Below are positions 8,896 through 39,340 of a stretch of 64,000 bases of DNA, one piece after another. The stretch is from a virus. The notes beneath the pieces are model-generated. The model made no database searches. It saw nothing but the letters and a program-made list of their open reading frames with translations, and had not been told where the DNA came from. Each line of letters starts with the position of its first letter. Positions within the stretch are counted from its first letter, which is position 1. The stretch covers positions 1-64,000 of the IMG/VR virus record IMGVR_UViG_3300042691_013609. The stretch is one strand, 5' to 3'. Both the position numbers and the translations under genes were made by a program.

Positions 8896-10170
8896 TTGGA
8901 TAAGGTAACGTTTTTAAAAAGACTTGTCAACGATATTTATAATGGCGAGAGAAAATCTTGGAAAGAATATTCAAATGAGTATCTCCCTGGTGACCCCGAA
9001 GGACTAAGACAAGTTTGGAGATCATTCAAGGACAGGACTTTTAAAAATGGGGATTGGGTATATAACGTCAAAATAGAGCCTGAGCTTTATCAAAAAGCTG
9101 AGTATGCCATATTAAACACATCTCCATTAAATGTCTCTCTAGGTGAAGAACAGCCGATTTTATCGGCACTAAAACCTGACGGGACTATAATGAATATAGA
9201 AGAATATTGCGATTATTATTCTATACCAGTTGATCATGTAAAATCTTTCAAATTAGTAACTCACTCTGGAAAGGGTGCGTACTATAACATAACTTCCGCA
9301 TCTATTAATTTAGAGACAGACAAGTTTAAAGATTTTGCAGCAGCTATTCTAAATGATTTATCAAAAATAAATACCTTACCAATCACAAAGAGTAGGGATG
9401 AGGTGAAAGACCCTCATCTCCTTCTTTTAAGTTTAGCTGATTTACATATTGGAAAGTTAGCTGAATCATTTGAAACAGGAGAAGATTATAATAATCAGAT
9501 CGCTGTAAAAAGAGCAAAAGAGGGTGTGGCTGGTATTCTAAATAAGTCATCAGGGTTTCCTATAGAAAAAATTATTTTCGTAGGAGGTAATGATATTCTA
9601 CACATAGATAATCCAAAAAGAACCACTACATCTGGAACACCACAAGATACTGATGGCATGTGGTACTCAAACTTTTTGGTAGCTAAACAATTATACATAG
9701 AAATAATTGACAGCCTACTTTCAGTATCAGATGTTCATTTTGTTTTTAATCCTAGTAACCATGATTATATGACTGGTTTCTTTTTGGCGGATTTAATAAA
9801 GACATACTATAAAGACTGCAAAAACATAACATTCGATTGCAGTTTATCACATAGGAAATATATTACTTACGGAGACAATTTAATAGGAACAACTCATGGA
9901 GATGGGGCAAAGGTAGAAAATTTGCCCCTTTTAATGGCACATGAATCACCTGATTGGAGCTCTTGTAAACATAGGTATATTTATTTCCATCATATACACC
10001 ACAAGACATCAAAAGATTATTTAGGCGTTTGTGTTGAATCACTTAGAAGTCCATCAAGCGCTGATAGCTGGCACCATAGAAATGGTTACCAGCATGCCCC
10101 AAAGGCTGTAGAAGGATTTATACATCACCCAAAATTTGGACAAATAGCCAAGTTAACTCATTTATTCTAA
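8896..10170 (+). CDS. calcineurin-like metallophosphoesterase
   Basis: Motifs ADLHIG, GGNDILH, PSNHD, THGD and HHIHH in canonical order. Confidence 0.85.
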   Translation: MDKVTFLKRLVNDIYNGERKSWKEYSNEYLPGDPEGLRQVWRSFKDRTFKNGDWVYNVKIEPELYQKAEYAILNTSPLNVSLGEEQPILSALKPDGTIMNIEEYCDYYSIPVDHVKSFKLVTHSGKGAYYNITSASINLETDKFKDFAAAILNDLSKINTLPITKSRDEVKDPHLLLLSLADLHIGKLAESFETGEDYNNQIAVKRAKEGVAGILNKSSGFPIEKIIFVGGNDILHIDNPKRTTTSGTPQDTDGMWYSNFLVAKQLYIEIIDSLLSVSDVHFVFNPSNHDYMTGFFLADLIKTYYKDCKNITFDCSLSHRKYITYGDNLIGTTHGDGAKVENLPLLMAHESPDWSSCKHRYIYFHHIHHKTSKDYLGVCVESLRSPSSADSWHHRNGYQHAPKAVEGFIHHPKFGQIAKLTHLF

Positions 10171-22979: not shown

Positions 22980-24536
22980 ATGTTTGGGAATTCATTCTTA
23001 ACTAGTAAGTATTTAAAGAAATTGCAGCAAGGGGGTGGGATATCCATCCCCGACCCTGCTAGATTTAGAACTCCAATACAGGGGATTAATCCTTCTGTGT
23101 TCAATTATGATATTAACACAAAGCCACTTGATGTAAACCCTATGTTGCAGGTTATGCAAACTAAGGATAGTATGGATATGGCTAGGGAAAAGGCAGCCTT
23201 AGAAAGGGAAAAACTAAAAGCTCAAGCTGATTTAGAAAAAAGTAAATTACAGCACCAGCAGAATAAGATGATGATGGATTTCATGGGTGATATGTTTAAA
23301 GTTACTGGAGATGCCTCTATGAGTTCTGCGGGAACTCCACTTTACGCAGGAAATGACCTAACTACGTCAAAAAGATATGCACCTATTTACCAGCAATGGC
23401 AAACAAAGGAGTCAGAGATAGTAACCGATATAGCTAAGAGTATGTCTGCCCCAGTTGGTAGTACTCAAGCTAGCACTGTTATTATGAATAAAATGTTGGA
23501 ACTCCAAAGACACAGGCAGAATGCGCCTACAACAATGCAAATGGGTGCAGACCATAAAAGTATGGAAAATTTTTGGACTACTATGTCCGGAAATTCAAAA
23601 GATAAAAATAAAAAAATGAATGGCACTCTAGCTATGAGGGCCTTGAAACAAAGGGAAGAGTTTTTAAATGGTGTAGATAATGGTTACGAACTAGGCATGT
23701 CTGTCAATAATATACCTGGTTTAGTTTATGACAATGAATACGAGAGAAAGAAGTTAGACGATATTTACGCTCAAGTAAACAAACCTATCGAGCAAGAATT
23801 TATGGATTCAGGCGGTGGAGTTATAACTACTAAAAAAACTAAAAAAACATTAGACCCTAAGTTAGCATCTCAAGCTATTTTAGATAGAGTTTGGGGAGAT
23901 GCGAGCCAAAGATCTTATTTATCTGATTTATATGGAATGGATTTATGGGATGTAGATCAAAACAATGAAGCCAGAGTTAAAGAATTGTTAAGAGATAAAA
24001 TAGAGAAAACTATTCAGTACGATGATCAGTTATATGGTGGAGCTACTGGTGTAACTACAGATATATCAGCTCAAATACTTCCTACTAAAGATAAGACTGT
24101 CACTATGAATTATAATGTAGCTGGGGGTACTACAAAAAATATAAATAAAACTGTAACACCGTTAGATTCAGTTGAGCTGCCTAAGAATGTATCAACAAAT
24201 ACAGATGGATCTTATGACGTATCTGGAAATCCGGATACTCTTAAAAAGATAAAAGCTTATAGAGCTGCCAATAAGATTTCAAGTAACAATTATAAAAACG
24301 TTTCAGGAAAAGAATTAGCAGAAGCTCTATCTCCAGGAAGTACTGGCGGAACAACTGCTGCGCCTGCTGCACCAGGAACTTCTGGTTCAGCTACAGCTAA
24401 AACACCACAAGAACTAGCTAGAGAACAATTCCCTGGTATGTATAAACAGATGGAAGAAGTAGACAAGGGTGTAAAAACTGTCGAGACTAAGAAAAAGAAA
24501 GAAATACAAAATCTAAAAAATAAATACGGCTTATAA
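22980..24536 (+). CDS. putative internal virion protein
   Basis: 518 aa; N-terminal KKLQQGG; TAATG-coupled to the giant ORF. Confidence 0.6.
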   Translation: MFGNSFLTSKYLKKLQQGGGISIPDPARFRTPIQGINPSVFNYDINTKPLDVNPMLQVMQTKDSMDMAREKAALEREKLKAQADLEKSKLQHQQNKMMMDFMGDMFKVTGDASMSSAGTPLYAGNDLTTSKRYAPIYQQWQTKESEIVTDIAKSMSAPVGSTQASTVIMNKMLELQRHRQNAPTTMQMGADHKSMENFWTTMSGNSKDKNKKMNGTLAMRALKQREEFLNGVDNGYELGMSVNNIPGLVYDNEYERKKLDDIYAQVNKPIEQEFMDSGGGVITTKKTKKTLDPKLASQAILDRVWGDASQRSYLSDLYGMDLWDVDQNNEARVKELLRDKIEKTIQYDDQLYGGATGVTTDISAQILPTKDKTVTMNYNVAGGTTKNINKTVTPLDSVELPKNVSTNTDGSYDVSGNPDTLKKIKAYRAANKISSNNYKNVSGKELAEALSPGSTGGTTAAPAAPGTSGSATAKTPQELAREQFPGMYKQMEEVDKGVKTVETKKKKEIQNLKNKYGL

Positions 24537-27500
24537 TGAATGAAGATTTCTTAAAAGAGCTATATAATAGTTATGGTATATCTAAGAAAAACATCAGTTT
24601 TGATGAGTTTTCAAAAGATATGGCTAAACCTGATTTTCAAAAACTTTTTTACGATAGCAAAAAGTTTTCTGATAAAGGGATTTCTTTTGATGATTTTAAA
24701 TTAGATATTTCTAATAAAGAAAAACCAATATCTTTTAGTGTTGAGGGTACTAGAGAGGCAATGGCCAATGTTGATGAAGCTATTAAAAATGTAAAAGTAC
24801 CTACTAAACCTGTTTCAGAAACAGTAAAAGAGCAGAAGGGCACAGATGTGACCGGTATAAGGACTGATATAAATTGGGAACAAGGTACTACTAAAAATGT
24901 TATTGATCCTGAAAAAGCAAGAATAGAAGCAGCTAAAGTAGCAGCAGAAAAATCTAAGTCTACTGGAGAAATTATACCCGGATGGAAGAGGACTGTCGAT
25001 TTCACAACAGGTGAAGTTACTGATGTAGTAGACGAAGAGAGAAGAAGTGCCTATTTAAAGACCCAAGAAGAAATAAAGAAGGCACAAGAAGCTACGCAAC
25101 AACAATTTCAACCAGGATCTTATACTTATTTCCCAACAATCTCAGAACCAGATTTACCTGTTTACAATTTACAAAAAGCTTTAAAACCATATGAAGATGC
25201 TGTAGCTGAAGCTAATGGAGGTATTTTTCAGGACGCAAAATCTGCTTTTTATAAAGTTTTAGATATAACTAAACTGTCCAGCCCTTATGGGGGTAATATT
25301 TATAATCAGTACCAAATAGAACTTGCTGCGGATAGAAAAGAAAAATTACAAAAAGCTGAAGAACTAAGAGGTAAAATAATGTCTGAATTACCAGAGGAAG
25401 TAACAAATCCTTTGGATTTTGATTCTATATACCAATATGAAGCTAGTACGTCCACTACTAAAGAAGAAGCAGTCAATAAAACAAACGTCAAACTAAAAGA
25501 CCATTCAAATAGGTTACGTTTAGTCGAAGATTATAATTATAAAAAACTCACCCCTCAACAACAGCAAGTAGCCGACTTACTAAAAAAAGGAGAAGATGTG
25601 GACGTGTCTTCTTTAGAGGGTTCCCCAGAGTTTGATAAATGGATGAGATCCGCCGATAACGTAAGTAAACAAAAAGAATTAGTAAAAAATAATATAGACA
25701 AATATACAGGAGTACAGCAGTATATTGGTAATATTCTTGGCGAACTTAAAAATAAAAACTATGACGATGATGTTATAGAGTCTAGCTTGGTGAATTCATT
25801 AGAAACCCTAAGACAACAAAAACCAGAGTGGTCTGATGAAATTAATGATGCCCAAAACTTTATTAGAGAAAAAACTGTAACAGAAGGTGATGCTTTAAGT
25901 GCAGCTGCTTCATGGGGGTTTAATACAGCTAATAAAATAGGAGATACATTTGGGGCGATGCTTAAAGGTGTTAAATCCACTTTTTATACAGAAAGTACAA
26001 GGAATCTAACAAGAGGGGATGTAGATCAAGTCGTTAGGGATGAATTTGGGAAAGACCTTAGAGATATGTTAGTTGGGGCTTCCTCTAAATATAATGCGCC
26101 TATTAGTAGTAATGTTGTAGAAAAAGGAAATTTAAAACTTATAATCGAAGATGGTAAAGTAGTTGATATAAGAAGGAAAGATGATTCAAAAATATTCTTT
26201 CCAACTAAATATGAGTTACAAGTAGCAGAGTCTTATAATCCAAAAGTAGATGGAGAGGGTGAAGTAGATTATAACTGGAAGTCTATTGGTAATACTACAG
26301 GCCAAGTTATCACTGATATGATACCTATGATAGCAGCATCAATGGCTAGTGGTGGGGCTACTTTGCCAACTATGCTAGGGGCTATGTCAACTACATATGG
26401 TTCGTATTACAATGAAGCATTACAAAGAACAGGAGATATGAAACAAGCCACGTTATACGCGGCTATTACTTCTCCATTAATAGGGTATGTAGAGTCTAAA
26501 GTTGGTAATTTAGAGGGTAAATTAGGAAGAGCTTTAACTGGAGCAGAAAAAGGGGCTATTGAACGATTAGCTTTAGAAGTAGGTGAAGAAGTTTCTTCTA
26601 AAGGTATTAAAAATTACGTAGAAGGAAGAGGCGTTTTAACCTACTTAAAAGAAAAAGTAGCCAGATCGCCCGAATTAATTGGGGATATAAAAGGTGAATT
26701 ACTTGAAGAGTTCTCAAATTTCGGCACTGAAGCTGTTACAGCTGCCGCTACTGGTGTAGAAGGAGAACCTCTAACTATGGCTGAAGTAGAAGAAACAGCT
26801 ATTATTACTACTTTAGTTTCTGGTCTTATGGGCGGAGCCCGTATTATGGCGGACAACGCTAAAGAGATCAATGAAATGCTTGGTTATGCAGCTCTCAATC
26901 AAGATAAGTTTGAAGAGGCTGGAGTTAAATGGGTTGAAGCAGGGAGAACTGAAGAAGAGAAAGCAAAAAGAAGAAAAGACTTTGAAGCAAAAAGAGTATC
27001 AGTTACAGAAGTAAAAGATACTTTAAATTACGTAAACGAAAATAACTTTTCAGAAAAAGATAAAGATGAATTATTTAATTTATCTTTAGAGAAAGCTAAA
27101 CTTCTTTATAAGATGGCTTCTTCTGAAAGTGAGAAGACAAAAACTAATTTAGCTAAATCTATAGCCGAGATTGACAAGAGGATGGCGGGGTATACTCCAG
27201 GTGAAGGAGCTCCTGAAGCACCGCCTACACCTGAAGCCGCTATAGAAGAATCTAAAAAAGGATTTGTTACAGAAGAAGAGTTTAATACTTTAAAACAAAA
27301 CGGAAGAATACCTTCTGATGTTACTTTTGACCAGTTTAAAGAACTTCCTTTAAATAAACAACAAGAGTACAGACAACCAAAACCTACAGTAACCGAAGCC
27401 CAGCAAACAGAATTAGATAAAATAAATAAAAGAGCTACCTCTATCCAACAAAGATTGGATGAGGATAAGGCATTAGAGGATGAAGGTGAAGAACCTATAC

Positions 27501-30500
27501 TATCTAAAGAAGAAAGACAAAGACTAGAAACACAATTACAAACATTAAACCAACAAAGAGATGCCATTCAAAAGCAAAGCACAGCAGAGATATCTGTTCA
27601 GCCAGAACCCCAAACTGGCGAAGGAGTGGGCGGACAAGTACAACCAGAACCTCAAGTCACTCCCGGAGAAGGCCAAGTCGAAACCGAAGGCCAAGTCGAA
27701 GAGCAAGCTCAAGGGAAAATAGTAGATAAAAATTTTGATGAATCTCCTGACACTAAATCTTTTGTAGGTTCATATGTAGATTACCAAGGAGTGAGAGGTG
27801 TCTTGTTAGAAGATGGCCAAGGTAATATTATAGTGGACACTGGAGAGGGAGATGTCTTAGTTGAGGGGGCTTTGTCAGACATGACAAACAATGAATTAGG
27901 TCTCAGCAGAGCTGAAAGACCTGAAATAAATGAACAAGACATACAAAAAATAGAGCAAGATGTAACTGCTAATATAGATCCAACTGTTATACAAACAGAT
28001 TTCGGCACCGGTAGGGTATTTTACGGGGGTAAAGAATTTAAGTATGAGTCTACTAATCTAGATAAAGACGGAAATGCTGTATCTATAAGTATGACAGATG
28101 CTGATGGCAATAAGAAGACCATACGTAATAAACAAGCGGTTGAAGAAATAGAACTTCAAAAAATGATTTTTGAAGACTTACTAAACAATAATAAAATAAC
28201 ATTAGACAATGAGTTCGCAAAACAATTCCAAGCCCAAGCAACAGACCTTGGGATCAAACCCACGATTACAGCTCCCCAAAGAGGTCAGAGACGTGTTGAA
28301 CCAGTACAGCAAGGAAGACCAACTGAAAGTGTTAAAGGCGATGAAACAAAACCAGAATTTGTAAAAAGAACTCCTGGGGTCATAAAAGGTTTTGAGGTAA
28401 AGAAAAAAGACGGAACAACTTTACCTCCATCTAATTATACAAAAGATTCAAAGACTGGCAAATGGAGGAGGATAAATGAGACAGGCAAGCCTACAGCAGT
28501 AAATACTCAGCAAATGATTCAGCAATTGGAAGCTGAGGAAAAAAGATTAACAAAAGAAGAACAAAAAGCTATAGCTGAGGCCAAAAAAAGAATACCTGTT
28601 GAGATAAAAGGATTTGAAGTAAAGAAAGCCAATGGTACAACTGTGCCAGCCTCTGATTACGTAAAAGACCCTAACACCGGAAAGTGGAAAAGGATAAATG
28701 AACAAGGTAAACCTATAGCTGTATCCAGCCAACCAATGATAAAACAATTGGAGGCGGAAGAAAAAAGATTAGCACAAGAAGAACAAATGGCTGCCGAACA
28801 AAAGGCAAAGCCAAAGGCGGAGCCTACGCCAGCCACACAGCCGGCAAAAGCAGCTCCAGTTATAACAGTAAAAGCACCTGCAATAGAAGTTACGCCACAA
28901 CCAGAAGCTAAAGGGGAGGGGGTAGAAAAAACTGCACAAAAGGCAGAAACGAAACCAGAAACCGCTACTACGAAACCTACACCAGAAGCCAAAACTCCAG
29001 AACCCGCTGCTGCAACAGAAACACCTACACCAGAAGCTCCTCCTAAACCGCAAGGCAAGGTTGGGGCTAACGGCGTTCCACAAATATTTTTCTCTATGCC
29101 TGGCGTTAAAGCGGTAGGGTTTGATATTTTTGGGAAGTTTTATAATGTTGTATCAAACTCATTTAGACCAAAGATAATGGTGGATATAAACGGAACAATT
29201 ATTCCATTTTATATGACTACTGGATTTGGCGGAAAGAGTACACCTCCTGGATGGTATCCAATTTGGGGTTTTGGGGAAGACGGTTGGTTTAATAAAACCG
29301 TGGATTCAGAGATTATGGATTTCTATTCTAAGTATATTGGAAGGGAAAATGCGGACTTGTTAAAATCTATCGCAGATGAGTTAAATAATTTCTATGGAGT
29401 AGATCCTTTTTTTATTTCTATCGATTATGATAGAGATTCTAATTTACCTAAAGTAGAAGCTGAGGAGAAATTTGAAAAAGAAGTTAATAAGCTTGTAAAT
29501 TCTAAGTTACCTATCAAACCAATACTCCAAAAATCTGGAGACATAAAGACATTAAGTAAAAATATAAAAACACTTGGAGATAATTTATCTAAGAGTGTAG
29601 AAGGTATTAAGAAACAACAGCAAGAAGAGAAAGCTAGGCAAGAGGCACAAAGAAAAGCCGAAGAGCAGAAAAGAGTTGAAGAGCAGAGAAAGGCGGAGGA
29701 ACAGAAAAAAGCTGAAGCTGAAAGACAAAAAGCTGCCGAAGAAAAAGCTAAAAAAGAAGCAGAAAAACCTGCTCCAAAGAAAGAAGAGCCTGCTAAAAAA
29801 GCAGTAGAAGAAGAAGTAGATTTAGAAGAGCCAGCTACAGAAGAAGAGATTGCTGCTTTTGAAGAAGAGATGAAGATGCTTGAATCTGAATTAGCTGAAG
29901 CTTTGGCAAAAGGTTTCCAGGATGGTTTTAGTGTTAGTAATAAATCACAAATAGCTGCGGCTGAATCAGTAACTACTACAAAGGAAAATAAAGATACTGT
30001 ATTAGCTTCAAAAAGATTAATACGGGTATTGAAGTCTGTATTCCCTAATATGGATATTTTCTTACATACAGACGAAGAGTCCTACAATAGGAAAATGGAA
30101 GAACTTGGGGGAAGACCTGATTCTGGTGGTAATTTCTTTTACGCTAAAAGCCCAGATGGCAAAGTAACTAGGGGGCGGATAGATATAAATCTTAATTCGG
30201 CCAGCCCAGTTACTGTAGCGCACGAAGTATCCCACGCTATCTTATTAAAGACTTTTGGGGATAACCCTGTTTTATTTAAAAAATTCCGGGACAATATTGG
30301 AAAAATCTTATTAAATGAAGCTAATCAAAAATTAATAGTTAGAGATAGATACGGAAGATCAGTAAGCTGGGCTAGTGCGTTAGATAGTTTTGAAGCTATG
30401 TATAAAGGCCAAGAAGTGGCCCCTGAAGAATACTTAGTACAATTAACTGCATTCTTATCTGAGAGTGGTAACGCGTTAACGATAGCTAGAAAAGCACCTT

Positions 30501-33500
30501 CTATCTTAGAAAAGATAGTTAGGACTATAAACAGTTTAATATCTACAGCTACTAATGGTAAGTTTTCTCCATTTAAAAATTTTAAGGCTTCAGAACAAGA
30601 ACAATTAGAAAATTTAGTTGATTTCTTTAATTCAATTGGTAAGACTTTATCCACAGGAGGAGAAATAACAGCCGACCAGATTGCGGAAGCAGCAACTCTT
30701 AATGATCTTTTATATCCAAAGGGGGACTATATAGGAAATAAATCTTCTGTTTTTGTACCGAATTCCGGCGGGCCTGGCATAGTAGAGAATGTAGATGCGG
30801 ATGCTTTGGCAATTATGAATTCTTATGAGTTTTTAAATAAAGCTTTAGATTTAGATAAAAAGAATACAGTAGATATTGATATCGATGTTGATGAATTAAA
30901 TAGCAGACTTGATACTCCGCTTAAAAAAGTAAAGTGGAGTGACTTCAAAGGTATGCCATTTATATTTACTATATCAGACCAATTAACTACAGGAGACGTT
31001 ACTAACCCAATTACAAATAAAGTTATAGATAACTTAAAGGGGGGATTAGGTTTTAATGGCACAAATGGAAATACTAATAGTGCCTGGGCCAATATGGGTG
31101 ATGTAGAGGCCACCAATACGATTGACAAAGCCACCACCATTTACGAGAATAATAAAGAATTATTCCAAAAACTATGGAAGGACGGATCACTCCCTAATGG
31201 CCATATCCCTATGGCAGTTGTAAAAATGGGGGAAGCATCTATTACTTCAAATGAAGCTGTTTTCAGGGTAGGTCTTGAAAATATAAAAACATTGCCGTTA
31301 GAAAATAGGCAAAAAGCTGTTAAGGTTCTAAAAGAAAGCCTTAATGAAAAAATAAATACTTTAAAAGAAGATATAGCTCGTGGTGTTTCTAAAGATAAAA
31401 AACCTAAAGTCTATTCAGACAATACTATAGATGGTAAGAAGAAGAAGATAAGTGCATATAATGAAATATTAAAAAAGATAAACCAAAATAAATACACTGA
31501 TATTGCGGATATCATAAAAAATATTTCTAAATTCTCTTTACCTCAAAGAGTTCTAATAGGAGGTGAAGTCTTTTTTGGATCGAGTCCTACTAAGCCAGGG
31601 GCGAAACCGGTTAAACCTAATAAACCAGATACGCCAGTAACTTTGGCTTTACTTGGTGACAATAACCCAGCCCTTCTTCATATTGGACCTATTACTGATT
31701 TGATCACAGAAAAAGCTATAAAAGATGTACCATCAAATCATGTGATAGCTGTAGTAGGTGTTGATGTCCTAAACCCAGAGATAACCACAACAACGCATCC
31801 AAACTATGAGAAAGGAGTTAAGGGTGTGTCTATTGGTGTTTTAGATAAACCAATACACATGCTAGATGCTTTTGGGGAAGCTTATGGGAATGCTATGGCA
31901 TTAGCTGCTAAAAAGGAGGCAGAAAAATCTGAAACAGATACTAAAGCCCTTATATCTCAAGCAGTCCCTGTCCAGGCTGGTCTGCCTAATGCAGTTTTAA
32001 AAGGGGCAGTAGCTACGAATAAGGTAGATGCAATAGATAAGTTAAACGGATTTTTAAGACAGGCTTTCCCAACCACTAGCTTCTTTACTACACAAGAGGC
32101 TTGGGATGCTGTTATGGAGAATGGATCGATAGACAAGAAGTCTGTTGATGGTAATGTCCTTTATGGGTTTACTGCTAATGGGAATGTTTATATCAACCCA
32201 GATATAAAAACAGCTAAAGCTCCTTTACACGAAGTAGGACACTTATGGGTTAATTTTGTTAAGGATACAAACCCGGCTCTTTATGAGAAAGGATTGGCAT
32301 TAACAGAAGGTACTGCCGAGTTAGCCACAGAGATGGAAAAATATGGGGACACAAATCTAGCTAGAGAAGAAGCTTTAGTTAAATTGATGTCTACCAAAGG
32401 TGAGACCATTGTAAATACAGCCCAGAAGGCTGAGTTTAAAGAATGGTTGTTATCTATGTGGAAGTATGTGAAGGATAATTTTAAATCTTTATTAGATATT
32501 CCAGCCGACCAAGTTGAAGACATTACTTTAGACCAGTTCTTAAAGGGGATGTTGGCAGATGTACTTGGTGGAAAAGAGTTAGTTCCGCCTAAAAAAGCTA
32601 AAAAAACTAAAGGTACTAAAGAGATTACAGTAAATAAATCTTCGAGGGAAGATGTTAAGAAGGCTATAGAAGATATTGCTTTAGTTGATAAAGACATAGT
32701 GGCTAATGCGGCTTCAAAAGTGTTTAAAGATCCTGGTTACCATAGGGGCATTTTAGGTAAAAAATCAGATTTCACCGATAGATCTTATCATGGTGAGATG
32801 CCTTATACTGGATATTATTTTGTATCCGACCCTAAAGAAGTTGTTCTAGGTCAATCTAGATGGGGAGACCCAAGGGCTTTTAGAATTGTAGATTTTTCTA
32901 AATATAACTTAGTTAAATTCACTGGGGCGGAAGAATATTTTTCTTTAAAAATAGCTTTGAAGAGTTTAGCGGTAGATCTGTTAAGAGGTGAGATTAAAAT
33001 TGAGGAGGCGTTAAAAAATTTCCTTGAAAAACCATATACCTCTTTACCTAATTCTGTAGTAAGAGCTATACGAGATTACGATGGTAACAAACTTCAAAAA
33101 CAAGATCTTTCAAGAGAGAAGTTTCAATTAGAAGAAAGATTAAACACAGTTCGTAGTAATAAAGAGTTTGATGAGATAAGCAATAGAATAAACGAGATAA
33201 ATTCGGAAATATCTAAGATAGGTAAAAAACCATTTAGCGAGGCTTTGGGTGGTGTATTAGATGAATACGAAAAGCAAAGAAGTGCCCCACAAAAATCAGA
33301 AGAAGATCCTCCAGGAAGGGCTGAAAGGCTAGAAACTTTAATACTAAAAGAGTTAGGTTTTGAGGGTATAGATGCCAGACGTGTAAAAGCTGAGAATGGG
33401 CTAAAATCTCCAGATGATTTTTCACATGGGTCTACTATATTTGATTTAAAGCCTGGTACTGCCACATCATTACATGATGCTTATGTAGATGCTAAAGAGA

Positions 33501-36500
33501 ATAACACTAACCCAGAGCTAGTACAAGCTATGGATGATATGTTAGACCAAGAACGTGAAATAATTGTAAATAAATCCTCTAAAATACCCGGACCCGCTAG
33601 AATTGATAGGGAACTTCCAACTCCAAATAAAGAAAGAATTACAAATGCAACTGAGAATTTGCAGAAAAAATTCAGAAGGGATGGGGTTCGTTTAACCGAA
33701 AAAGAGGGAATGGAGATAGTTAAAGAATTATCTTCTTGGAAAGATTGGTATGAAGGTATAGCAGCTAAAGTGCAAGAAGCTTTTGGTGAATACTCTGCTG
33801 ATTACATGATGTTTATGTTTGGATCCGCTGTAGCTGCGAATAGCGCATCTACTATTGGCACATCTTTAAATAATCTGCAAAGATTATATGAAGGACAAGA
33901 TATAAAAGGTTTGCCTATAATGAAAAGAAATATTTATGAAATTCTTTCTAACTTGCCTGTCACAAGTGATAAGATAAGAAACTTCATAGCCGCCGGATTA
34001 GGCGATAAAAACGCCATACCTGTAGATATGCATGTTTGGAGTTTTATAAATTCATTTCCTACTTTAAAAACACCAAGTAAAAAAAATTTTGAAAAAGCTA
34101 AAGAGTTTGTTAGAAGTATTGCAGATGGTCTTAAATGGGACCCAAGAGAAGTGCAAGCAGCTATGTGGGCAGCTAACATGCTTAGATTAGGATTAGAACC
34201 AGACACTTATGAAGAATACATCCAAAGAAAAGTTGAGCGAGGACTCAAAGATCAGATCCAAAAATGGCGCGAAAAAGGTTATAAGCCAATTTTTGAAGTT
34301 CGTGAAGTCGGAGGGAAGTTAGAAACTTCCTTTATAGACGAAGTTAAGATTGACGCTTTGCAAAAATTAGAAGAGACTAATAGAAAAATAAGTAATAAAA
34401 AAGAAGAAATTACAGTAAGTAAATCTTCAAAAACCCAAAAGACAAAATTTGATCCTAGGGATAGAGGCCAAATGCTGGAAGACGAGTTCCTTAAAACAAA
34501 GGAAACTCTTATAAAAATGATCAGCGCCAGCTATAGAAATTCCATTAGTAAGGGTAAGAAATTTACCGAAGAAGACTTCAAGAAAATCCTAGATAAGTTT
34601 AATATTTCTATAGATGATAGTGGCATAGAGTTGTTGTTTAAGAGGGCTGTTAGATATAACTCTTATCCTAGAACAATCCAAAGAATTATTCTTACCCCTT
34701 CCATCCCCGACAATGTTAAAGATGCTTTATTAGATAACGCTAAACCAAAAGAAGTTATTACTGATGAGCACGTTGAAATCTTAGCAGATGCAATAGTAGC
34801 ACCAGGAAGGGAGGCAGAAACTAATGAAGAAGCAGTAGAAATCTTTGATAACTTACAAAAAGATTTGATTGATTCTTTAGCCAGGGAGTTAACAAACATA
34901 AGAGATGGGGCCCAGAGCCAGATTACTTACGAGATTAGGGCGTTGAAGAAAATTGCCCAAAGTCTTATTGAGATGGGAGATGTGAAGAGATCCGCAGATG
35001 TACTGGCGAAGATTACTTCTTTAGGTTCTTTATTTGGTAAGGAGCTTAGGGAGATTGGTTTGAACTCAATGGATGCAGTTTATATTGTCCACTTATCTAG
35101 GGAATCCGATGAGAATAGAGAAGAAGTTTTAAATGCCCCGGCTAAAGGGTATGAAAAAACAACTAATAGAGAAAGGATCGATAGCCAAAACAAAGCAGCA
35201 GAAGAAGCTTTAAAAGAAGGTGTTAGCGAAAGAAAAAAAGAAACGGCTAAAAAAGTACAAGAGAAATACGATAAGAGGACTAGTACAGAGAAAGTAAAAG
35301 AGGCTACCGAAGAAAGAGAGACTGCGCATGCTGCCGAAAAGAAAAAAGGACTTTTTGATAAGATAGTTGGGTCAGTTAAAGATTTCTTTGGTGTTAGCAA
35401 ATCTTCTTTAAATAAAAAGAATCCTCTTGCAGATACAGCCGGGAAAACTATTCCAGCAGCCCAGTTGGCACAGGTTGCCAAGGACTATTTTATGTATGCC
35501 TTTTATAACAATAATGGTAACACACAAAAAGCCCGCGAAGAATTTTTAAGTAAAAAAGAATTAAAAGGGGCGCACGGAGACATAGACCAGATCATAGGCA
35601 GTTTAGTTAGTGATGGTACATTGGATACGGCTACAAGAGAATTAGCCCAAGCCAAGATATTAGAAGCTCTACAGGAAGTACAAACTCCAAGCAATGTAAG
35701 AAAGCTTAGTCCTGCGCAATTAATTGCCATGAGGGTAAAAGCAATTGATAAGAGAAATGAAAAGGCTAAACCTAAAAGGAAAACTTTAGAACAAAAGATC
35801 GCAGAGAATGATGTAGATATAGAAACATTAACTGAACTTAGGAATGCTATTAATGCTGAATTAATGCAGTTGCCGGCCAATAAGAAAGAAGAAGTATTGG
35901 CAAGGGTAGATGATATTTTAGTTAACCTAAGAGCCGAAAAATTAAAGAATAGGGCTACACCATGGATAACTAAAGCTAAGATTAGGGAAGACTTCAAAAG
36001 AGGTTTATCTTCTTTAGGAGAAACTGTTGAAGACCTAATGGATGATCTATCTAAAATAGATGTCTATACTAATTCTATTGCCCAGGAGTTTATACAAAGA
36101 ACAGGTATGACTGCCGAAGAGGCAGCGCCATTCGTAAAGATTATAGAAGATGAAATTAAAAACATAGTAGATACTAAGGTCAAAGCTGCTTTAGAAAAAG
36201 AATACTTAGATTCTTTACAAGGAAACAGAGACGACTTAGTTAATGCTGCCGAAGAGTACGCCCAAAAAGCTTCAGATTTTGAAGCAGAAGCAGATAAACT
36301 ACGTAATAAAACTAAGACACCTGAAGAAGTTGAAAGGTTAAAGACAGCACAAAGAGAAGCAGCAAGATACAAAAAACTTGCAGCTAGAGCTAAGTCAAGG
36401 TTAAAAACATTTGACGAAAAAGCTGCCAAGCGTTTAAAAAGTGGAGATTTCTACCAGATTTTAAAGACTATTACGCAAGGTGGATTAACACAAGAAACCG

Positions 36501-39340
36501 TAGTAAATGCTTTAGCTAATTCTTTAAGAGTAGAGGTAATCTCTAAAGAGCAACTAAACCATATTGAGATTCTATCTGAAAAGATAAGGAATGCAACTAT
36601 GGCTAAGAATTCTGTGGACGAGGAAAAAGCTATAACTGAATTAAAGAAATACCTATACGGAATAAGTAATGTATCTTTCTTAGATATTTTTAAACGTATG
36701 TGGGAATCTTTTATGTACGGTAATATGCTTTCTAGCCCACGAACAGCAGAGGTTGCTTTCTTTTCTGGTACGATAGGTTTAATTAGAGATGTTATTGCAA
36801 ATTTCTTCCAAGCTTTAGCTGTAGATATATTAAATTTTTCACCTATTACCATAGGCAAGGATGGGATTAAAACAAGACGAGTAAAACCTGATTTTAGAAA
36901 TTTAAGAACATTAGGTAATGCATTATTAGATATAGTTGGTAGTAATAATATTTTTTCTTTTTCTACATTCTTTGAGGTATTAAAAGGTGCCGAAGGTATT
37001 TCTATACAGCAGATGGATGTCTCTGGTAAGACTAAAGATAGATTATCTAATTCTTTAGCTGAAATAGATAAGGCGGATGTTGCTATAGATAGGATAAAAC
37101 AAGATCCTAATTGGAAAATAAAGCCTAATAAAATAGCTGCTGTAGGAGCTTTAGAGGCTTTCAAATTACAACAAAGGATAGCTAGATTACTTGTTGCTAT
37201 GGACTATGCCGCTAGAAGTGCAGCCATACCTTACGCAATAAGAATGACCACTGCCCAAATAGCTACGGAGTCTTTGCCGATTAGTGCTACCTATAAAGAT
37301 ATTTATAATAAGACAAATGAAATTATAAATAGAGGTGAAGCAAAAGCAATAGCAGAAGCGAAAGCAGCCGAGATGGCAGCATTAGGTAAGAACTTTGATG
37401 AGAAAAGGTATGAGAAGAAAGTAGCTACAAGTGAGGCTGTATTACCAGCCGAGGTGCAAAGAAGAGTTAAAGAGTATGCAGATAGATTAGCCTGGACGGG
37501 TAGAATATTTGGTTACTCGGGTTGGATGGCCAACAAGTTAAATGGGGCGTTTGAAAAATTTAATGGAGAACCTATTTTACCAAATGACTCACTCCCAACT
37601 ACTTTAAGAAAATTAGCTATACAAATACCTCTTACCGCAGTTAAAATGGTGGCAATACCATTCCCAGGAGTATTATTTAGAGGTATGCAGTCTGTAAAAA
37701 ATGCTACTATTTTAGGTCTTTTCCAGAGGAAAGTCGTAAAAGGACTTGACGGGAAATACACCCAAGGAAAAGGATGGCCGTTGCAATTCTTTAAAGAACA
37801 TAGATTATATAATAGTGCAGGAAATGTAGATGAAGTAATCAAAGCTTCTAACTGGGAAGTAGCATCGAGAATAGCTTGGTCAACTGTCCCATCTGTAATG
37901 GCTTGGGCTTTATTTCAAGCTATGTTTACTTTTGATTTTGAAGACGATGAAGAAGAAAAAGAGTACAATGAGATGGGTTATTTTAATCCTCTTAAATTTG
38001 GTGCATTTTTTGAAAATGGAGCTACTATTAAGCTAAAATCTGATAGCGATTGGTTAATTACTGGAGAGTATGATTCTGATATGGAGGCAGTATTCAGAGG
38101 TAAAGGTTTACAGTATTTCCCTAATGCCATTTACTATAAAGGTAAGAAACTTCCTATTGTTGGTGGGTATAAAGATATGCCTTGGGGTATATTCTTTTCC
38201 GGGCTGGCGGCAGTGCAAGAAAGAGAACTTTATGCAGAAAAAGTAAAAGGGTCAAGTGATGCTACCAGAGATCCTTTAACTACTAGTGATGTCTTTAAAA
38301 TTATGGCGCTAAGTGGTGTAGGATTCCTTAGTGAATTTGGTTTGACTGGAGCTTTAGAACAACTATCCTTTATTACTGGAATATTTTCAGGAGAAGTTGA
38401 TGACAAAGTTTTCCAAAAAGCACAAAAAAATTTAGTAAGAACAAACATACCTGCTGTTGGTTTCGCCACTTGGTCAGCTAATCTCAAAGGAATGTACAAA
38501 GATGATGACAAAAGAAAAGGCATAGGTGTATTATCCGGAGCTATGGCGAATGCCTATGTGTTTGACGACTTCATTGATACATACGACTTCGACGCTTTAG
38601 GTAAAAGAATACCTTACCAAGAAAGTCCTTATCCTATTTTAGGCTCTGTTGAAAGGGCTGTGGCTTCTATAAATAATTCTAATTATTCTTTATTAACTAA
38701 TTCAACTTTTAAAGACCGCCAAACTAAAGCAGATATAATTAGATCTAAATACTCAGACTTCGCTACCTTAATTAGAAAGCAAAGCCCGAAAGATGTCTTA
38801 AAGAGTGAGAGAACTATTGTGGAGACTTTTGACGATCAGTCTAATTATGATATGGCCTTAGCTGCCGCTACCTCAAAAGGAGAAATGTTGGATACGTACT
38901 ATGAATACTTAGATGGATTAGAGAGAGGAGACTTCTCTAAAAGGCTTAGAGAAATAAACAATATAGGAAACGATCACGCCTTCTGTTCTAAAGTCTTAAC
39001 TGTATTAGAAAATAATGCCGATAAGATAATGAATGAAACAGGACTTTCCATCCAAGATATTGTCTCTAAAATAGGAATTAGACCAAAGAGTAAAATTGGA
39101 TTAACTAATGTGCAGGATAAAAACAGCAAAGGAGAATTCAAATATGATGCCAATGGAAATCCTGTAATGGTACCTGGATACTTTAAAAGATCAAAGCTAG
39201 TAGAATTGCTTTATGAATATGACATAAAAGTTACTAGCGATGGCCAATTAAAATTCAACCAAAAATACCAAGATACTTACGACAGGGAAGAGTTTGAGGA
39301 TTATATGAATTCACAAGCTGGAGATGTAGAGTCAGAGTAA
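24536..39340 (+). CDS. giant polyvalent (ejected) virion protein with two zincin metallopeptidase domains, an ART-like domain and an HhH-glycosylase-like domain
   Basis: 4934 aa; HEVSH (30221) and HEVGH (32228); GYHRG...GYYF...GFEGI (32730-33450); WY...PVDMHVW...WDPREVQAAMW (33740-34200); last gene of the virion block. Confidence 0.75.
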   Translation: MNEDFLKELYNSYGISKKNISFDEFSKDMAKPDFQKLFYDSKKFSDKGISFDDFKLDISNKEKPISFSVEGTREAMANVDEAIKNVKVPTKPVSETVKEQKGTDVTGIRTDINWEQGTTKNVIDPEKARIEAAKVAAEKSKSTGEIIPGWKRTVDFTTGEVTDVVDEERRSAYLKTQEEIKKAQEATQQQFQPGSYTYFPTISEPDLPVYNLQKALKPYEDAVAEANGGIFQDAKSAFYKVLDITKLSSPYGGNIYNQYQIELAADRKEKLQKAEELRGKIMSELPEEVTNPLDFDSIYQYEASTSTTKEEAVNKTNVKLKDHSNRLRLVEDYNYKKLTPQQQQVADLLKKGEDVDVSSLEGSPEFDKWMRSADNVSKQKELVKNNIDKYTGVQQYIGNILGELKNKNYDDDVIESSLVNSLETLRQQKPEWSDEINDAQNFIREKTVTEGDALSAAASWGFNTANKIGDTFGAMLKGVKSTFYTESTRNLTRGDVDQVVRDEFGKDLRDMLVGASSKYNAPISSNVVEKGNLKLIIEDGKVVDIRRKDDSKIFFPTKYELQVAESYNPKVDGEGEVDYNWKSIGNTTGQVITDMIPMIAASMASGGATLPTMLGAMSTTYGSYYNEALQRTGDMKQATLYAAITSPLIGYVESKVGNLEGKLGRALTGAEKGAIERLALEVGEEVSSKGIKNYVEGRGVLTYLKEKVARSPELIGDIKGELLEEFSNFGTEAVTAAATGVEGEPLTMAEVEETAIITTLVSGLMGGARIMADNAKEINEMLGYAALNQDKFEEAGVKWVEAGRTEEEKAKRRKDFEAKRVSVTEVKDTLNYVNENNFSEKDKDELFNLSLEKAKLLYKMASSESEKTKTNLAKSIAEIDKRMAGYTPGEGAPEAPPTPEAAIEESKKGFVTEEEFNTLKQNGRIPSDVTFDQFKELPLNKQQEYRQPKPTVTEAQQTELDKINKRATSIQQRLDEDKALEDEGEEPILSKEERQRLETQLQTLNQQRDAIQKQSTAEISVQPEPQTGEGVGGQVQPEPQVTPGEGQVETEGQVEEQAQGKIVDKNFDESPDTKSFVGSYVDYQGVRGVLLEDGQGNIIVDTGEGDVLVEGALSDMTNNELGLSRAERPEINEQDIQKIEQDVTANIDPTVIQTDFGTGRVFYGGKEFKYESTNLDKDGNAVSISMTDADGNKKTIRNKQAVEEIELQKMIFEDLLNNNKITLDNEFAKQFQAQATDLGIKPTITAPQRGQRRVEPVQQGRPTESVKGDETKPEFVKRTPGVIKGFEVKKKDGTTLPPSNYTKDSKTGKWRRINETGKPTAVNTQQMIQQLEAEEKRLTKEEQKAIAEAKKRIPVEIKGFEVKKANGTTVPASDYVKDPNTGKWKRINEQGKPIAVSSQPMIKQLEAEEKRLAQEEQMAAEQKAKPKAEPTPATQPAKAAPVITVKAPAIEVTPQPEAKGEGVEKTAQKAETKPETATTKPTPEAKTPEPAAATETPTPEAPPKPQGKVGANGVPQIFFSMPGVKAVGFDIFGKFYNVVSNSFRPKIMVDINGTIIPFYMTTGFGGKSTPPGWYPIWGFGEDGWFNKTVDSEIMDFYSKYIGRENADLLKSIADELNNFYGVDPFFISIDYDRDSNLPKVEAEEKFEKEVNKLVNSKLPIKPILQKSGDIKTLSKNIKTLGDNLSKSVEGIKKQQQEEKARQEAQRKAEEQKRVEEQRKAEEQKKAEAERQKAAEEKAKKEAEKPAPKKEEPAKKAVEEEVDLEEPATEEEIAAFEEEMKMLESELAEALAKGFQDGFSVSNKSQIAAAESVTTTKENKDTVLASKRLIRVLKSVFPNMDIFLHTDEESYNRKMEELGGRPDSGGNFFYAKSPDGKVTRGRIDINLNSASPVTVAHEVSHAILLKTFGDNPVLFKKFRDNIGKILLNEANQKLIVRDRYGRSVSWASALDSFEAMYKGQEVAPEEYLVQLTAFLSESGNALTIARKAPSILEKIVRTINSLISTATNGKFSPFKNFKASEQEQLENLVDFFNSIGKTLSTGGEITADQIAEAATLNDLLYPKGDYIGNKSSVFVPNSGGPGIVENVDADALAIMNSYEFLNKALDLDKKNTVDIDIDVDELNSRLDTPLKKVKWSDFKGMPFIFTISDQLTTGDVTNPITNKVIDNLKGGLGFNGTNGNTNSAWANMGDVEATNTIDKATTIYENNKELFQKLWKDGSLPNGHIPMAVVKMGEASITSNEAVFRVGLENIKTLPLENRQKAVKVLKESLNEKINTLKEDIARGVSKDKKPKVYSDNTIDGKKKKISAYNEILKKINQNKYTDIADIIKNISKFSLPQRVLIGGEVFFGSSPTKPGAKPVKPNKPDTPVTLALLGDNNPALLHIGPITDLITEKAIKDVPSNHVIAVVGVDVLNPEITTTTHPNYEKGVKGVSIGVLDKPIHMLDAFGEAYGNAMALAAKKEAEKSETDTKALISQAVPVQAGLPNAVLKGAVATNKVDAIDKLNGFLRQAFPTTSFFTTQEAWDAVMENGSIDKKSVDGNVLYGFTANGNVYINPDIKTAKAPLHEVGHLWVNFVKDTNPALYEKGLALTEGTAELATEMEKYGDTNLAREEALVKLMSTKGETIVNTAQKAEFKEWLLSMWKYVKDNFKSLLDIPADQVEDITLDQFLKGMLADVLGGKELVPPKKAKKTKGTKEITVNKSSREDVKKAIEDIALVDKDIVANAASKVFKDPGYHRGILGKKSDFTDRSYHGEMPYTGYYFVSDPKEVVLGQSRWGDPRAFRIVDFSKYNLVKFTGAEEYFSLKIALKSLAVDLLRGEIKIEEALKNFLEKPYTSLPNSVVRAIRDYDGNKLQKQDLSREKFQLEERLNTVRSNKEFDEISNRINEINSEISKIGKKPFSEALGGVLDEYEKQRSAPQKSEEDPPGRAERLETLILKELGFEGIDARRVKAENGLKSPDDFSHGSTIFDLKPGTATSLHDAYVDAKENNTNPELVQAMDDMLDQEREIIVNKSSKIPGPARIDRELPTPNKERITNATENLQKKFRRDGVRLTEKEGMEIVKELSSWKDWYEGIAAKVQEAFGEYSADYMMFMFGSAVAANSASTIGTSLNNLQRLYEGQDIKGLPIMKRNIYEILSNLPVTSDKIRNFIAAGLGDKNAIPVDMHVWSFINSFPTLKTPSKKNFEKAKEFVRSIADGLKWDPREVQAAMWAANMLRLGLEPDTYEEYIQRKVERGLKDQIQKWREKGYKPIFEVREVGGKLETSFIDEVKIDALQKLEETNRKISNKKEEITVSKSSKTQKTKFDPRDRGQMLEDEFLKTKETLIKMISASYRNSISKGKKFTEEDFKKILDKFNISIDDSGIELLFKRAVRYNSYPRTIQRIILTPSIPDNVKDALLDNAKPKEVITDEHVEILADAIVAPGREAETNEEAVEIFDNLQKDLIDSLARELTNIRDGAQSQITYEIRALKKIAQSLIEMGDVKRSADVLAKITSLGSLFGKELREIGLNSMDAVYIVHLSRESDENREEVLNAPAKGYEKTTNRERIDSQNKAAEEALKEGVSERKKETAKKVQEKYDKRTSTEKVKEATEERETAHAAEKKKGLFDKIVGSVKDFFGVSKSSLNKKNPLADTAGKTIPAAQLAQVAKDYFMYAFYNNNGNTQKAREEFLSKKELKGAHGDIDQIIGSLVSDGTLDTATRELAQAKILEALQEVQTPSNVRKLSPAQLIAMRVKAIDKRNEKAKPKRKTLEQKIAENDVDIETLTELRNAINAELMQLPANKKEEVLARVDDILVNLRAEKLKNRATPWITKAKIREDFKRGLSSLGETVEDLMDDLSKIDVYTNSIAQEFIQRTGMTAEEAAPFVKIIEDEIKNIVDTKVKAALEKEYLDSLQGNRDDLVNAAEEYAQKASDFEAEADKLRNKTKTPEEVERLKTAQREAARYKKLAARAKSRLKTFDEKAAKRLKSGDFYQILKTITQGGLTQETVVNALANSLRVEVISKEQLNHIEILSEKIRNATMAKNSVDEEKAITELKKYLYGISNVSFLDIFKRMWESFMYGNMLSSPRTAEVAFFSGTIGLIRDVIANFFQALAVDILNFSPITIGKDGIKTRRVKPDFRNLRTLGNALLDIVGSNNIFSFSTFFEVLKGAEGISIQQMDVSGKTKDRLSNSLAEIDKADVAIDRIKQDPNWKIKPNKIAAVGALEAFKLQQRIARLLVAMDYAARSAAIPYAIRMTTAQIATESLPISATYKDIYNKTNEIINRGEAKAIAEAKAAEMAALGKNFDEKRYEKKVATSEAVLPAEVQRRVKEYADRLAWTGRIFGYSGWMANKLNGAFEKFNGEPILPNDSLPTTLRKLAIQIPLTAVKMVAIPFPGVLFRGMQSVKNATILGLFQRKVVKGLDGKYTQGKGWPLQFFKEHRLYNSAGNVDEVIKASNWEVASRIAWSTVPSVMAWALFQAMFTFDFEDDEEEKEYNEMGYFNPLKFGAFFENGATIKLKSDSDWLITGEYDSDMEAVFRGKGLQYFPNAIYYKGKKLPIVGGYKDMPWGIFFSGLAAVQERELYAEKVKGSSDATRDPLTTSDVFKIMALSGVGFLSEFGLTGALEQLSFITGIFSGEVDDKVFQKAQKNLVRTNIPAVGFATWSANLKGMYKDDDKRKGIGVLSGAMANAYVFDDFIDTYDFDALGKRIPYQESPYPILGSVERAVASINNSNYSLLTNSTFKDRQTKADIIRSKYSDFATLIRKQSPKDVLKSERTIVETFDDQSNYDMALAAATSKGEMLDTYYEYLDGLERGDFSKRLREINNIGNDHAFCSKVLTVLENNADKIMNETGLSIQDIVSKIGIRPKSKIGLTNVQDKNSKGEFKYDANGNPVMVPGYFKRSKLVELLYEYDIKVTSDGQLKFNQKYQDTYDREEFEDYMNSQAGDVESE
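27561..27722 (+). CDS. nested +1-frame small basic protein (53 aa, MPFKSKAQQRYLFSQNPKLAKEWADKY...)
   Basis: ATG after A-rich ACATTAAACCAACAAAGAG, open to TAG 27720-22; resembles the small MPFKS phage proteins I recall; host frame here is a low-complexity linker. Confidence 0.65.
   Translation: MPFKSKAQQRYLFSQNPKLAKEWADKYNQNLKSLPEKAKSKPKAKSKSKLKGK
28209..28364 (+). CDS. nested +1-frame small protein (51 aa, MSSQNNSKPK...LKAMKQNQNL)
   Basis: ATG after A-rich AATAATAAAATAACATTAGACA; amphipathic helical core LPKEVRDVLNQYSKEDQLKVLKAM. Confidence 0.45.
   Translation: MSSQNNSKPKQQTLGSNPRLQLPKEVRDVLNQYSKEDQLKVLKAMKQNQNL
28370..28800 (+). repeat. tandem 74-aa domain duplication inside the giant protein
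   Basis: IKGFEVKK.GTT.P.S.Y.KD..TGKW.RINE.GKP.AV..Q.MI.QLEAEEKRL occurs twice, 222 nt apart. Confidence 0.9.
34209..34322 (+). CDS. possible nested +1-frame peptide (37 aa, MKNTSKEKLSED...)
   Basis: Open ATG-TAG frame starting right after the glycosylase-like domain; short, could be chance. Confidence 0.3.
   Translation: MKNTSKEKLSEDSKIRSKNGAKKVISQFLKFVKSEGS

Follow-up and report, generated by a model that had tools for sequence, protein, structure and literature searches.

Does the short open reading frame (ORF) at positions 27561–27722 of a virus genome, lying wholly inside the gene for a giant virion protein, encode a protein of its own? The stretch analysed here (the window) comprises the first 64,000 nucleotides (nt) of IMG/VR virus record IMGVR_UViG_3300042691_013609, and the ORF, which encodes a 53-amino-acid (aa) peptide beginning with MPFKSK, had been proposed as a hidden gene by a first-pass annotation made from the letters alone. 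Its coordinates, phase and translation in our analysis are identical to those proposed. The ORF occupies the +1 frame of the giant ORF on the same strand ((27561 − 24536) mod 3 = 1), and its ATG falls in host codon 1,009. We conclude that it is very probably a genuine gene, one base out of phase with its host, and that both frames are used. What is established here is that the ORF belongs to a protein family, that the nesting recurs, that the nested frame is selected at the protein level in relatives, and that the host frame is maintained.

The predicted nested product is a small basic protein of 6.15 kDa with an isoelectric point (pI) of 10.4, containing 16 Lys or Arg residues and 3 Asp or Glu residues. 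Across the overlap the host frame reads DAIQKQSTAEISVQPEPQTGEG..., also given as DAIQKQSTAEISVQPEPQ... for the region of the nested ORF, which is the low-complexity linker originally described. The A-rich leader and the locally raised GC content that had been remarked on are likewise present. GC content is 0.52 at 27550–27699 compared with 0.32–0.41 nearby, and 0.512 in the nested ORF compared with 0.361 in the giant gene, while T content is 0.111 and 0.259, respectively. The length of the ORF by itself is not beyond chance. When the codons of the giant gene were shuffled, a mean of 0.87 ATG-initiated ORFs of at least 53 aa appeared in the +1 and +2 frames, and 61% of the 1,000 shuffled copies contained one or more; when only the 180 codons around the ORF were shuffled, P was 0.016. 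The giant gene contains five alternative-frame ATG-ORFs of at least 40 aa, including the nested gene. The other four, all in the +1 frame and 43–58 aa long (24573–24704, 26871–27014, 28209–28364 and 38070–38246), gave no match at E ≤ 0.1 in a search confined to PHROGs. They have the appearance of chance ORFs, in a number that the shuffles would predict. The nested ORF was therefore judged to be real because of its homology and not its length.

A search of 5.8 × 10^9 proteins with the nested ORF returned matches at E ≤ 0.01 for 26 of 33 candidates (best E 1.3 × 10^−10, 77–80% identity). The matching proteins are 43–80 aa long, and the best matches cover 81–98% of the query. Ten alignment columns (M1, P2, F3, K4, S5, K6, Q8, A20, L34 and P35) are invariant in all 27 aligned sequences and are all retained in the window ORF, which also conforms to the rest of the family core: aromatic residues at positions 11 and 13, Ala20, Trp or Phe at position 23, a K-x-LPEK motif, a Lys/Arg-rich tail and a length of ~39–68 aa. 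A profile of the 27 sequences, in which the window ORF is one of the rows, matched 3,772 of 1.84 billion cluster representatives at E ≤ 10^−3 and 680 at E ≤ 10^−10; the window ORF scores 86 bits against this profile, which includes it. In addition, phrog_1375, a PHROGs family annotated as function unknown, matches 21 of the 27 members with a best E of 2.2 × 10^−7. By these comparisons, the nested ORF belongs over its full length to a family of small basic phage proteins, the MPFKSK family, that corresponds roughly to phrog_1375; PHROGs holds the annotated free-standing proteins, and the nested arrangement is, as far as we have seen, not part of phrog_1375. In a profile search of the 121-kb virus record, the nested ORF was the only family copy. 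Membership in DUF3008 (PF11450), whose proteins we take to be short and basic with a similar start, was rejected, as none of the 27 members matched the Pfam hidden Markov model (HMM) at E ≤ 1. The nearest named cluster in a protein atlas was a viral cluster with 37% of its members carrying DUF3008 (score 0.83), which serves as a lead only.

Four arrangements of the family are seen. Its members may be encoded by genes of their own, form the N-terminal module of a longer fusion protein, or be nested, either in the +1 frame of a giant virion gene or in a gene for an acidic protein of ~420 aa. Stand-alone genes beginning with MPFKS, which the first-pass annotation had placed in other phages, exist both in GenBank phages and in metagenomes, with homologs in an actinophage, a cyanophage and marine phages. 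Two of those in GenBank are annotated, as a 39-aa protein of phage 023Pt_psg01 and as gp8 of Mycobacterium phage Papyrus, and those of phage C75C1 and Synechococcus phage S-CBS2 are not. In the fused forms, the module is the extreme N-terminus of many proteins of 100–1,301 aa, and it starts at residue 1 in most of the 150 profile matches listed. Five such long forms (P0040, P0044, P0047, P0055 and P0121) carry the module at residue 1 followed by Gly/Ala-rich hydrophobic stretches, which look like membrane-active or internal-virion segments, and no Pfam domain was identified in them.

Nesting of this gene is recurrent. A first scan of IMG/VR gave at least 599 pattern matches, of which 383 were confirmed and 80 loci kept; 79 short ORFs, from 78 of these loci and the window, were classed, and the two further loci carry in-frame long forms. 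Twenty of the 79 are fully nested in frames of 700 to more than 3,100 codons, 594–1,079 codons from the frame start, and another 20 are nested 26–69 codons into frames of ~420 codons. The other frame is open by chance in 23, which belong to GC-rich genomes and in which the next gene begins after the ORF, and it is closed in 16. All nestings seen have the +1 phase. A second scan, the pattern of which demanded TTC at Phe3 and favours nested copies, yielded 148 unique contexts after de-duplication (67 nested in ~420-aa hosts, 24 nested in giant hosts and 57 free). A metagenome scan yielded 76 ORF rows, classed by our own cut-offs and with many giant-nested contigs cut at an end, as 22 nested in ~420-aa hosts, 15 probably nested in giant hosts, 33 free and 6 in-frame long forms. 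The genes for the ~420-aa hosts, whose products are acidic, lie between a portal gene (phrog_6547, E 6 × 10^−152) and a virion structural gene, which is the position of a scaffold gene, and their own ATG is located 23–68 codons upstream of the nested ATG in 67 of 67 cases.

The same nesting is found in 68 GenBank records of the cultured Flavobacterium phage vB_FspP_elemo (Elemovirus), in which a 42-aa member lies unannotated in the +1 frame of a 3,694-aa 'structural protein'. The suspicion that standard annotation misses the gene holds for every nested carrier inspected, including these 68 records, because gene callers forbid genes inside genes. The host-frame peptide DAIQKQS, said in the first-pass annotation to recur in giant phage proteins, does so as [D/N/Y]A[V/I]Q.[Q/E][S/G] in 20 of 20 giant hosts examined and in the Flavobacterium Elemovirus, because it is the −1-frame reading of MPFKSK. 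The ATG and the stop of the +1 frame are kept in all nested copies seen, and neither of the outcomes named beforehand as speaking against the gene, a lack of stand-alone homologs or frequent +1-frame stops and loss of the ATG, was encountered. Among Elemovirus strains L275–L279, in which the nested ORF spans 129 nt (locus positions 1501–1629), some pairs differ at only 1–4 positions across 3.1 kb. In these pairs, every difference falls inside the 129-nt overlap, mostly at the third codon position of the peptide, in counts too small to judge; a local hot spot or the border of a recombination patch would be possible explanations.

Selection on the two frames was examined through the geometry of the overlap, in which codon position 2 of the peptide is the host wobble position and peptide position 3 is the host first position. 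In 32 disjoint pairs of the ~420-aa group, the flanks showed 0.168, 0.095 and 0.295 differences per site at host positions 1, 2 and 3, and the overlap showed 0.102, 0.104 and 0.227 at peptide positions 1, 2 and 3. In each of the 32 pairs, the host wobble position varied less within the overlap than in the flanks, and peptide position 3 was at least as variable as position 2. The four disjoint pairs of the giant group gave 0.208, 0.128 and 0.343 in the flanks and 0.233, 0.095 and 0.376 in the overlap, with lower host-wobble variation in the overlap in three pairs and position 3 at least as variable as position 2 in all four. In the upstream flanks taken alone, the usual periodicity of the host frame was seen in 30 of the 32 ~420-aa pairs and in all four giant pairs. 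Each difference was then classed by its effect in both frames. The resulting dNN/dSN of the peptide was 0.22 (bootstrap 95% confidence interval 0.17–0.29) in the ~420-aa group and 0.23 (0.20–0.27) in the giant group, compared with 0.60 and 0.61 for a mock +1 frame in the flanks that served as the control. The dNN/dNS of the host moved from 0.28 and 0.31 in the flanks to 0.64 and 1.81 in the overlap (~420-aa and giant groups, respectively). These results show that constraint shifts from the host frame to the small frame within the overlap in the nested relatives. The claim that the linker lies over a real, conserved small gene is upheld in these homologous nestings, where host-synonymous variation is suppressed and the small frame is selected.

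The host frame, for its part, is kept open by selection, on purpose. When nested peptides were recoded synonymously with host codon usage, the mean probability that the host frame stayed open was 0.001 in the giant group and 0.000 in the ~420-aa group, and with uniform synonyms it was 0.016 and 0.012. For the window itself, the probability of no host stop given the peptide is below 1/20,000 with the codon usage of the giant gene and 0.0019 with uniform synonyms. Phe3 is encoded by TTC in 40 of 40 nested copies, because TTT would make TAA in the host frame; TTT is used in 5 of 16 copies with a closed frame. The locally raised GC content arises because the nested codons use GC-rich synonyms: GC content is 0.505 in nested ORFs against 0.415 in their loci, and 0.461 against 0.339, with 0.428 against 0.462 for free ORFs. 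In the window, the ratio of AAG to AAA is 10:5 in the nested ORF and 129:377 in the giant gene. Maintenance of both frames within the window itself is indicated by the improbable open host frame together with the intact family residues, the selection statistics coming from relatives.

A search for PFKSKAQ with a pattern that omitted the ATG found an ATG directly before it in 105 of 108 unique places, and the other three read ATG-AGC-, a one-codon insertion. Loci L159, L172 and L181, nested in ~420-aa hosts, have a one-codon insertion (Met-Ser-Pro-Phe...) with the host frame still open. Bacteroidota ribosomes ignore Shine-Dalgarno (SD) motifs, and initiation is tuned by mRNA structure and upstream nucleotides, as reported in PMC6847099. 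In the genome of the window virus, an SD-like motif precedes 6 of 117 genes, and the leaders are A-rich and G-poor. A start-context matrix derived from this genome gives the nested ATG a score of 2.81, a value reached by 14 of the 299 internal ATGs of the giant gene. The 60-nt start window has a minimum free energy of −0.9 kcal/mol compared with a mean of −8.15 kcal/mol, and 97% of host windows are more structured. In all 24 giant loci and in 66 of the 67 ~420-aa loci, the start window is likewise less structured than the majority of host windows, and the A content at −20 to −1 across relatives is 0.54 compared with 0.34 and 0.59 compared with 0.41. The Bacteroidota-type −7 promoter motif occurs 12 times in the giant gene, including once 239 nt upstream of the nested ATG, an uninformative result. 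The context of this ATG is of the type used by SD-blind Bacteroidota ribosomes and so fits an SD-independent start, and the nested gene is presumably translated in this phage.

The large ORFs appear to have extended over a small gene that already existed, since the small gene is widespread and free-standing elsewhere and the host-frame stretch shows only such similarity as the peptide dictates. A de novo origin by overprinting, which would have produced a young and restricted nested ORF, was rejected, as free-standing distant homologs and thousands of relatives contradict it. On a weakly resolved tree of 148 peptides and 44 columns, nested states cluster, requiring 12 changes compared with 62 when labels were shuffled. 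The window peptide shares a clade (support 98) with four others, each of them nested in a giant gene, yet the flanks of the window gene are unrelated to those of these four clade-mates. The N-terminal parts of giant hosts form at least four groups unrelated by BLAST. The N-terminal part of the window protein matches none of the giant-host groups, while one group is matched by the C-terminal part (36% identity to the giant host of locus L028 over 373 aa, E 2 × 10^−49). These relationships suggest that the giant genes are mosaic and that the nested gene lies close to a junction. An origin by fusion of neighbours found no trace in the loci compared: neither the N- nor the C-terminal parts of the giant hosts had a BLAST hit (E ≤ 10^−5) among ORFs of at least 150 aa in free or ~420-aa-nested loci. 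Summed over contigs, depth rises ~5–15-fold at window positions 27525–27641, in the core of the nested gene only, in three metagenome runs labelled as freshwater or 'fungus', and contigs of other phages match this segment alone, with unlike sequence on both sides.

The surroundings of free-standing copies bear on function. These copies occupy the gap between the portal and MuF genes in Papyrus and between the portal and head genes in 023Pt_psg01, follow the capsid gene in S-CBS2, adjoin TerL in loci L015 and L074, and precede weak SU10-type portal matches or, in L077, a major head protein. In the window, ORFs that match virion structural PHROGs precede the giant gene that contains the nested gene. 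From the family alignment, AlphaFold2 predicted helices at residues 6–15 and 17–27 and a disordered Lys tail (mean pLDDT 73). The neighbouring genes suggest a role in the head and in packaging, and the Lys tail is consistent with a polycation; we infer that the product works in head assembly or DNA packaging. More specifically, and only tentatively, it might be a head-associated protein whose N-terminal module docks on a head component while its polycationic tail binds DNA or an acidic scaffold. The first-pass annotation had suggested a DNA-binding core peptide or a chaperone or inhibitor of the giant protein, either of which would be a candidate role only. Complex prediction of the peptide with giant-protein residues 600–1008 and 1063–1500 returned no verdict (score 0.00). 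In seven loci of GC-rich phages (L039, L041, L042, L045, L048, L067 and L079), the free-standing gene is followed in −1 phase, with overlapping stop and start, by a gene for a conserved protein of ~125–170 aa. This protein has a helix-turn-helix-like middle and could be a small terminase or a regulator.

The arrangement in the window probably operates as follows. Ribosomes that start at 24536 would read the overlap as an acidic linker of the giant protein, while others would start at the internal ATG, in an A-rich, G-poor and nearly structure-free stretch, and make a 6-kDa product consisting of an N-terminal module of two helices and a polylysine tail. The older and more constrained partner is the small gene, with relatives standing free in the head and packaging modules of very different phages. 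In the lineage of the window, a neighbouring ORF has probably grown across it, and the codons of the small gene have been re-chosen (GC-rich synonyms, TTC for Phe3, AAG over AAA) so as to leave no stop in the host frame. A more speculative and rather doubtful scenario joins these elements: an ancient head-module gene could have been engulfed by neighbouring ORFs in at least two unrelated contexts (giant injected or virion proteins, and scaffold-position proteins) and have long persisted as an obligate gene within a gene. Its polycationic product, made from the mRNA of its host, would then act on that host and might, for instance, neutralise the polyanionic linker of the other frame or load the head with the giant protein or with DNA, and the conserved stretch would double as a recombination hinge for swapping N- and C-terminal halves of giant genes.

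Several points weigh against a functional nested gene in the window. The selection tests rest on other lineages of the family; their disjoint pairs are possibly not phylogenetically independent, the distances are uncorrected for multiple hits, and the estimator is biased, with the mock frame at 0.6 rather than 1. Close relatives of the giant gene itself were not recovered: a viral scan gave 20 pattern matches with none confirmed, and none of 80 metagenome loci fetched with the peptide matched the window flanks by tblastn. The nested start context reaches only the 26th percentile of the 117 gene starts, with G at position −3, and the low structure around it is partly a by-product of the conserved purine-rich first codons. 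The match of the window ORF to the phrog_1375 HMM is weak (residues 3–50, E 0.0014, 20 bits). With respect to function, no Pfam family matches the nested peptide or the 27 members, and ten long fused forms gave no informative Pfam domain. Finally, no RNA run was listed among the sequencing runs that contain window DNA. Blastn in distant mode with positions 26500–29000 found no match among phage records, and contigs assembled from four sequencing runs contained one close variant, which ends at 27499, short of the overlap, the remaining pieces belonging to other phages. This variant has 12 differences at 27364–27469, 8 of them at host third positions.

The missing RNA run and the lack of close relatives in which ongoing selection could be seen would suit a fossil, that is, a once free-standing gene swallowed by the giant ORF and no longer translated, its intact ORF being an undecayed relic; ribosomes on the giant ORF could also hinder internal initiation. 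We consider this unlikely, since the nested frame of relatives is under strong protein-level selection well below the mock value, the ATG and stop persist throughout the nested copies, all ten invariant residues are intact in the window ORF, and the record holds no other copy of the family. Slippage from the giant frame, which the shared strand and +1 phase permit and for which fused modules elsewhere offer a precedent, would instead give a 1,008-aa N-terminal protein with a basic tail and no separate small protein. This is very unlikely, as the module is nearly always at the extreme N-terminus in fused and free forms and an ATG, which slippage does not need, is universal in nested copies.

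A role at the nucleotide level is less probable again. A recombination hinge or RNA element at a module boundary would accord with the mosaic giant hosts, with the different groupings of the window peptide and of the C- and N-terminal parts of its host, and with the many unrelated metagenome contigs that match 27525–27641 alone. Variation is nevertheless concentrated at peptide third positions, with amino acids kept through synonymous changes, which is the signature of a protein, and free-standing copies keep the same protein; a hinge role could be a side effect of the nested gene. Practically negligible is the chance that the ORF is an accident in a linker poor in T, or the result of an assembly error in which two genes were wrongly joined across a small one. 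Although an alternative-frame ORF of 53 aa is expected by length in a 14.8-kb gene and the region is poor in T, the full-length family match at its E-value in a database of that size, the same nesting in many independent contigs and complete genomes of cultured phages, and the presence of window DNA in sequencing runs of several studies all contradict it. A genuine nested gene with both frames in use remains the favoured reading.

Coordinates of the nested gene, its host and associated features in the window
Feature	Position	Strand	Description
Nested gene	27561..27722	+	53 aa, 162 nt; ATG 27561–27563, TAG 27720–27722
Host gene	24536..39340	+	4,934-aa giant virion/polyvalent-type protein
Host-frame reading of overlap	27560..27724	+	Acidic Gln/Pro/Gly/Glu-rich linker, pI 4.05, without stop codon
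Nested-start leader	27536..27560	+	A-rich, G-poor, inside host coding sequence, without SD motif
Tandem stop	27723..27725	+	Second in-frame TAG immediately after nested TAG; read from sequence

The giant protein has two visible HExxH motifs (HEVSH and HEVGH) and, elsewhere, long Pro/Glu/Ala/Lys-rich linkers, for example at ~28700–28950, where GC content and AT skew also rise; no family-supported nested ORF was found in those linkers. Against Pfam it gave a single weak, sub-threshold match to DUF7178, and nothing further was found when it and three ~420-aa hosts were compared with PHROGs and Pfam. Elsewhere in the window, a 424-aa ORF at 8896–10170 matches phrog_704 ('DNA repair exonuclease') and may be a terminase-type nuclease. 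The C-terminal 57% of its product is 70.5–71.4% identical to left-end proteins of Flavobacterium siphophage genomes, and it is 55% identical to Synechococcus phage S-CBS2. These matches suggest a Flavobacterium-like host.

Spanin genes of the Rz/Rz1 type comprise a small gene with its own start inside a larger gene, and embedded, overlapped or separated layouts occur across phages. In classical overprinting, a new gene arises inside an old one; here, unlike in phiX174, the large ORF extended over a pre-existing small gene. The embedded, same-strand, +1 architecture is common to the MPFKSK gene and lambda Rz/Rz1 (Kongari et al. 2018, PMC6139136), and the MPFKSK gene also occurs in several layouts, nested here and free-standing in other phages. 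The functions are unrelated; there is no sign of a lipoprotein or of involvement in lysis in the MPFKSK case. Its embedded gene is the older partner and is widespread, the host-frame stretch being lineage-specific, and the hosts are giant virion proteins and scaffold-position proteins. Same-strand, out-of-phase dual coding with both frames selected is shared with the A/B and D/E overprinting of phiX174, as reviewed in PMC8227390. The host gene of the window resembles the polyvalent proteins of Iyer et al. 2017 (PMC5512222) in being giant and multi-module, lying in a virion gene block and carrying HExxH motifs; in the main text of that paper, 'overlapping' and 'frameshift' have no occurrences and a nested small gene is not described. 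A literature search that left supplementary small-ORF lists outside its scope found no paper on the MPFKSK family or its nesting and no primary Elemovirus paper.

The family is large, with thousands of clusters, and lies in the head and packaging block, so that a conserved virion-assembly component is probably missing from phage proteomes and structural models. The locus offers an unusually clean natural case of dual coding in which the small gene is older and more constrained, the reverse of classical overprinting, and one gene can be compared in its free, fused and nested states. A cultured host–phage pair, Elemovirus on Flavobacterium sp. BAL314, is available in which knock-outs silent in the host frame are possible, and the nested gene provides a test of how internal starts are chosen in SD-independent Bacteroidota translation.

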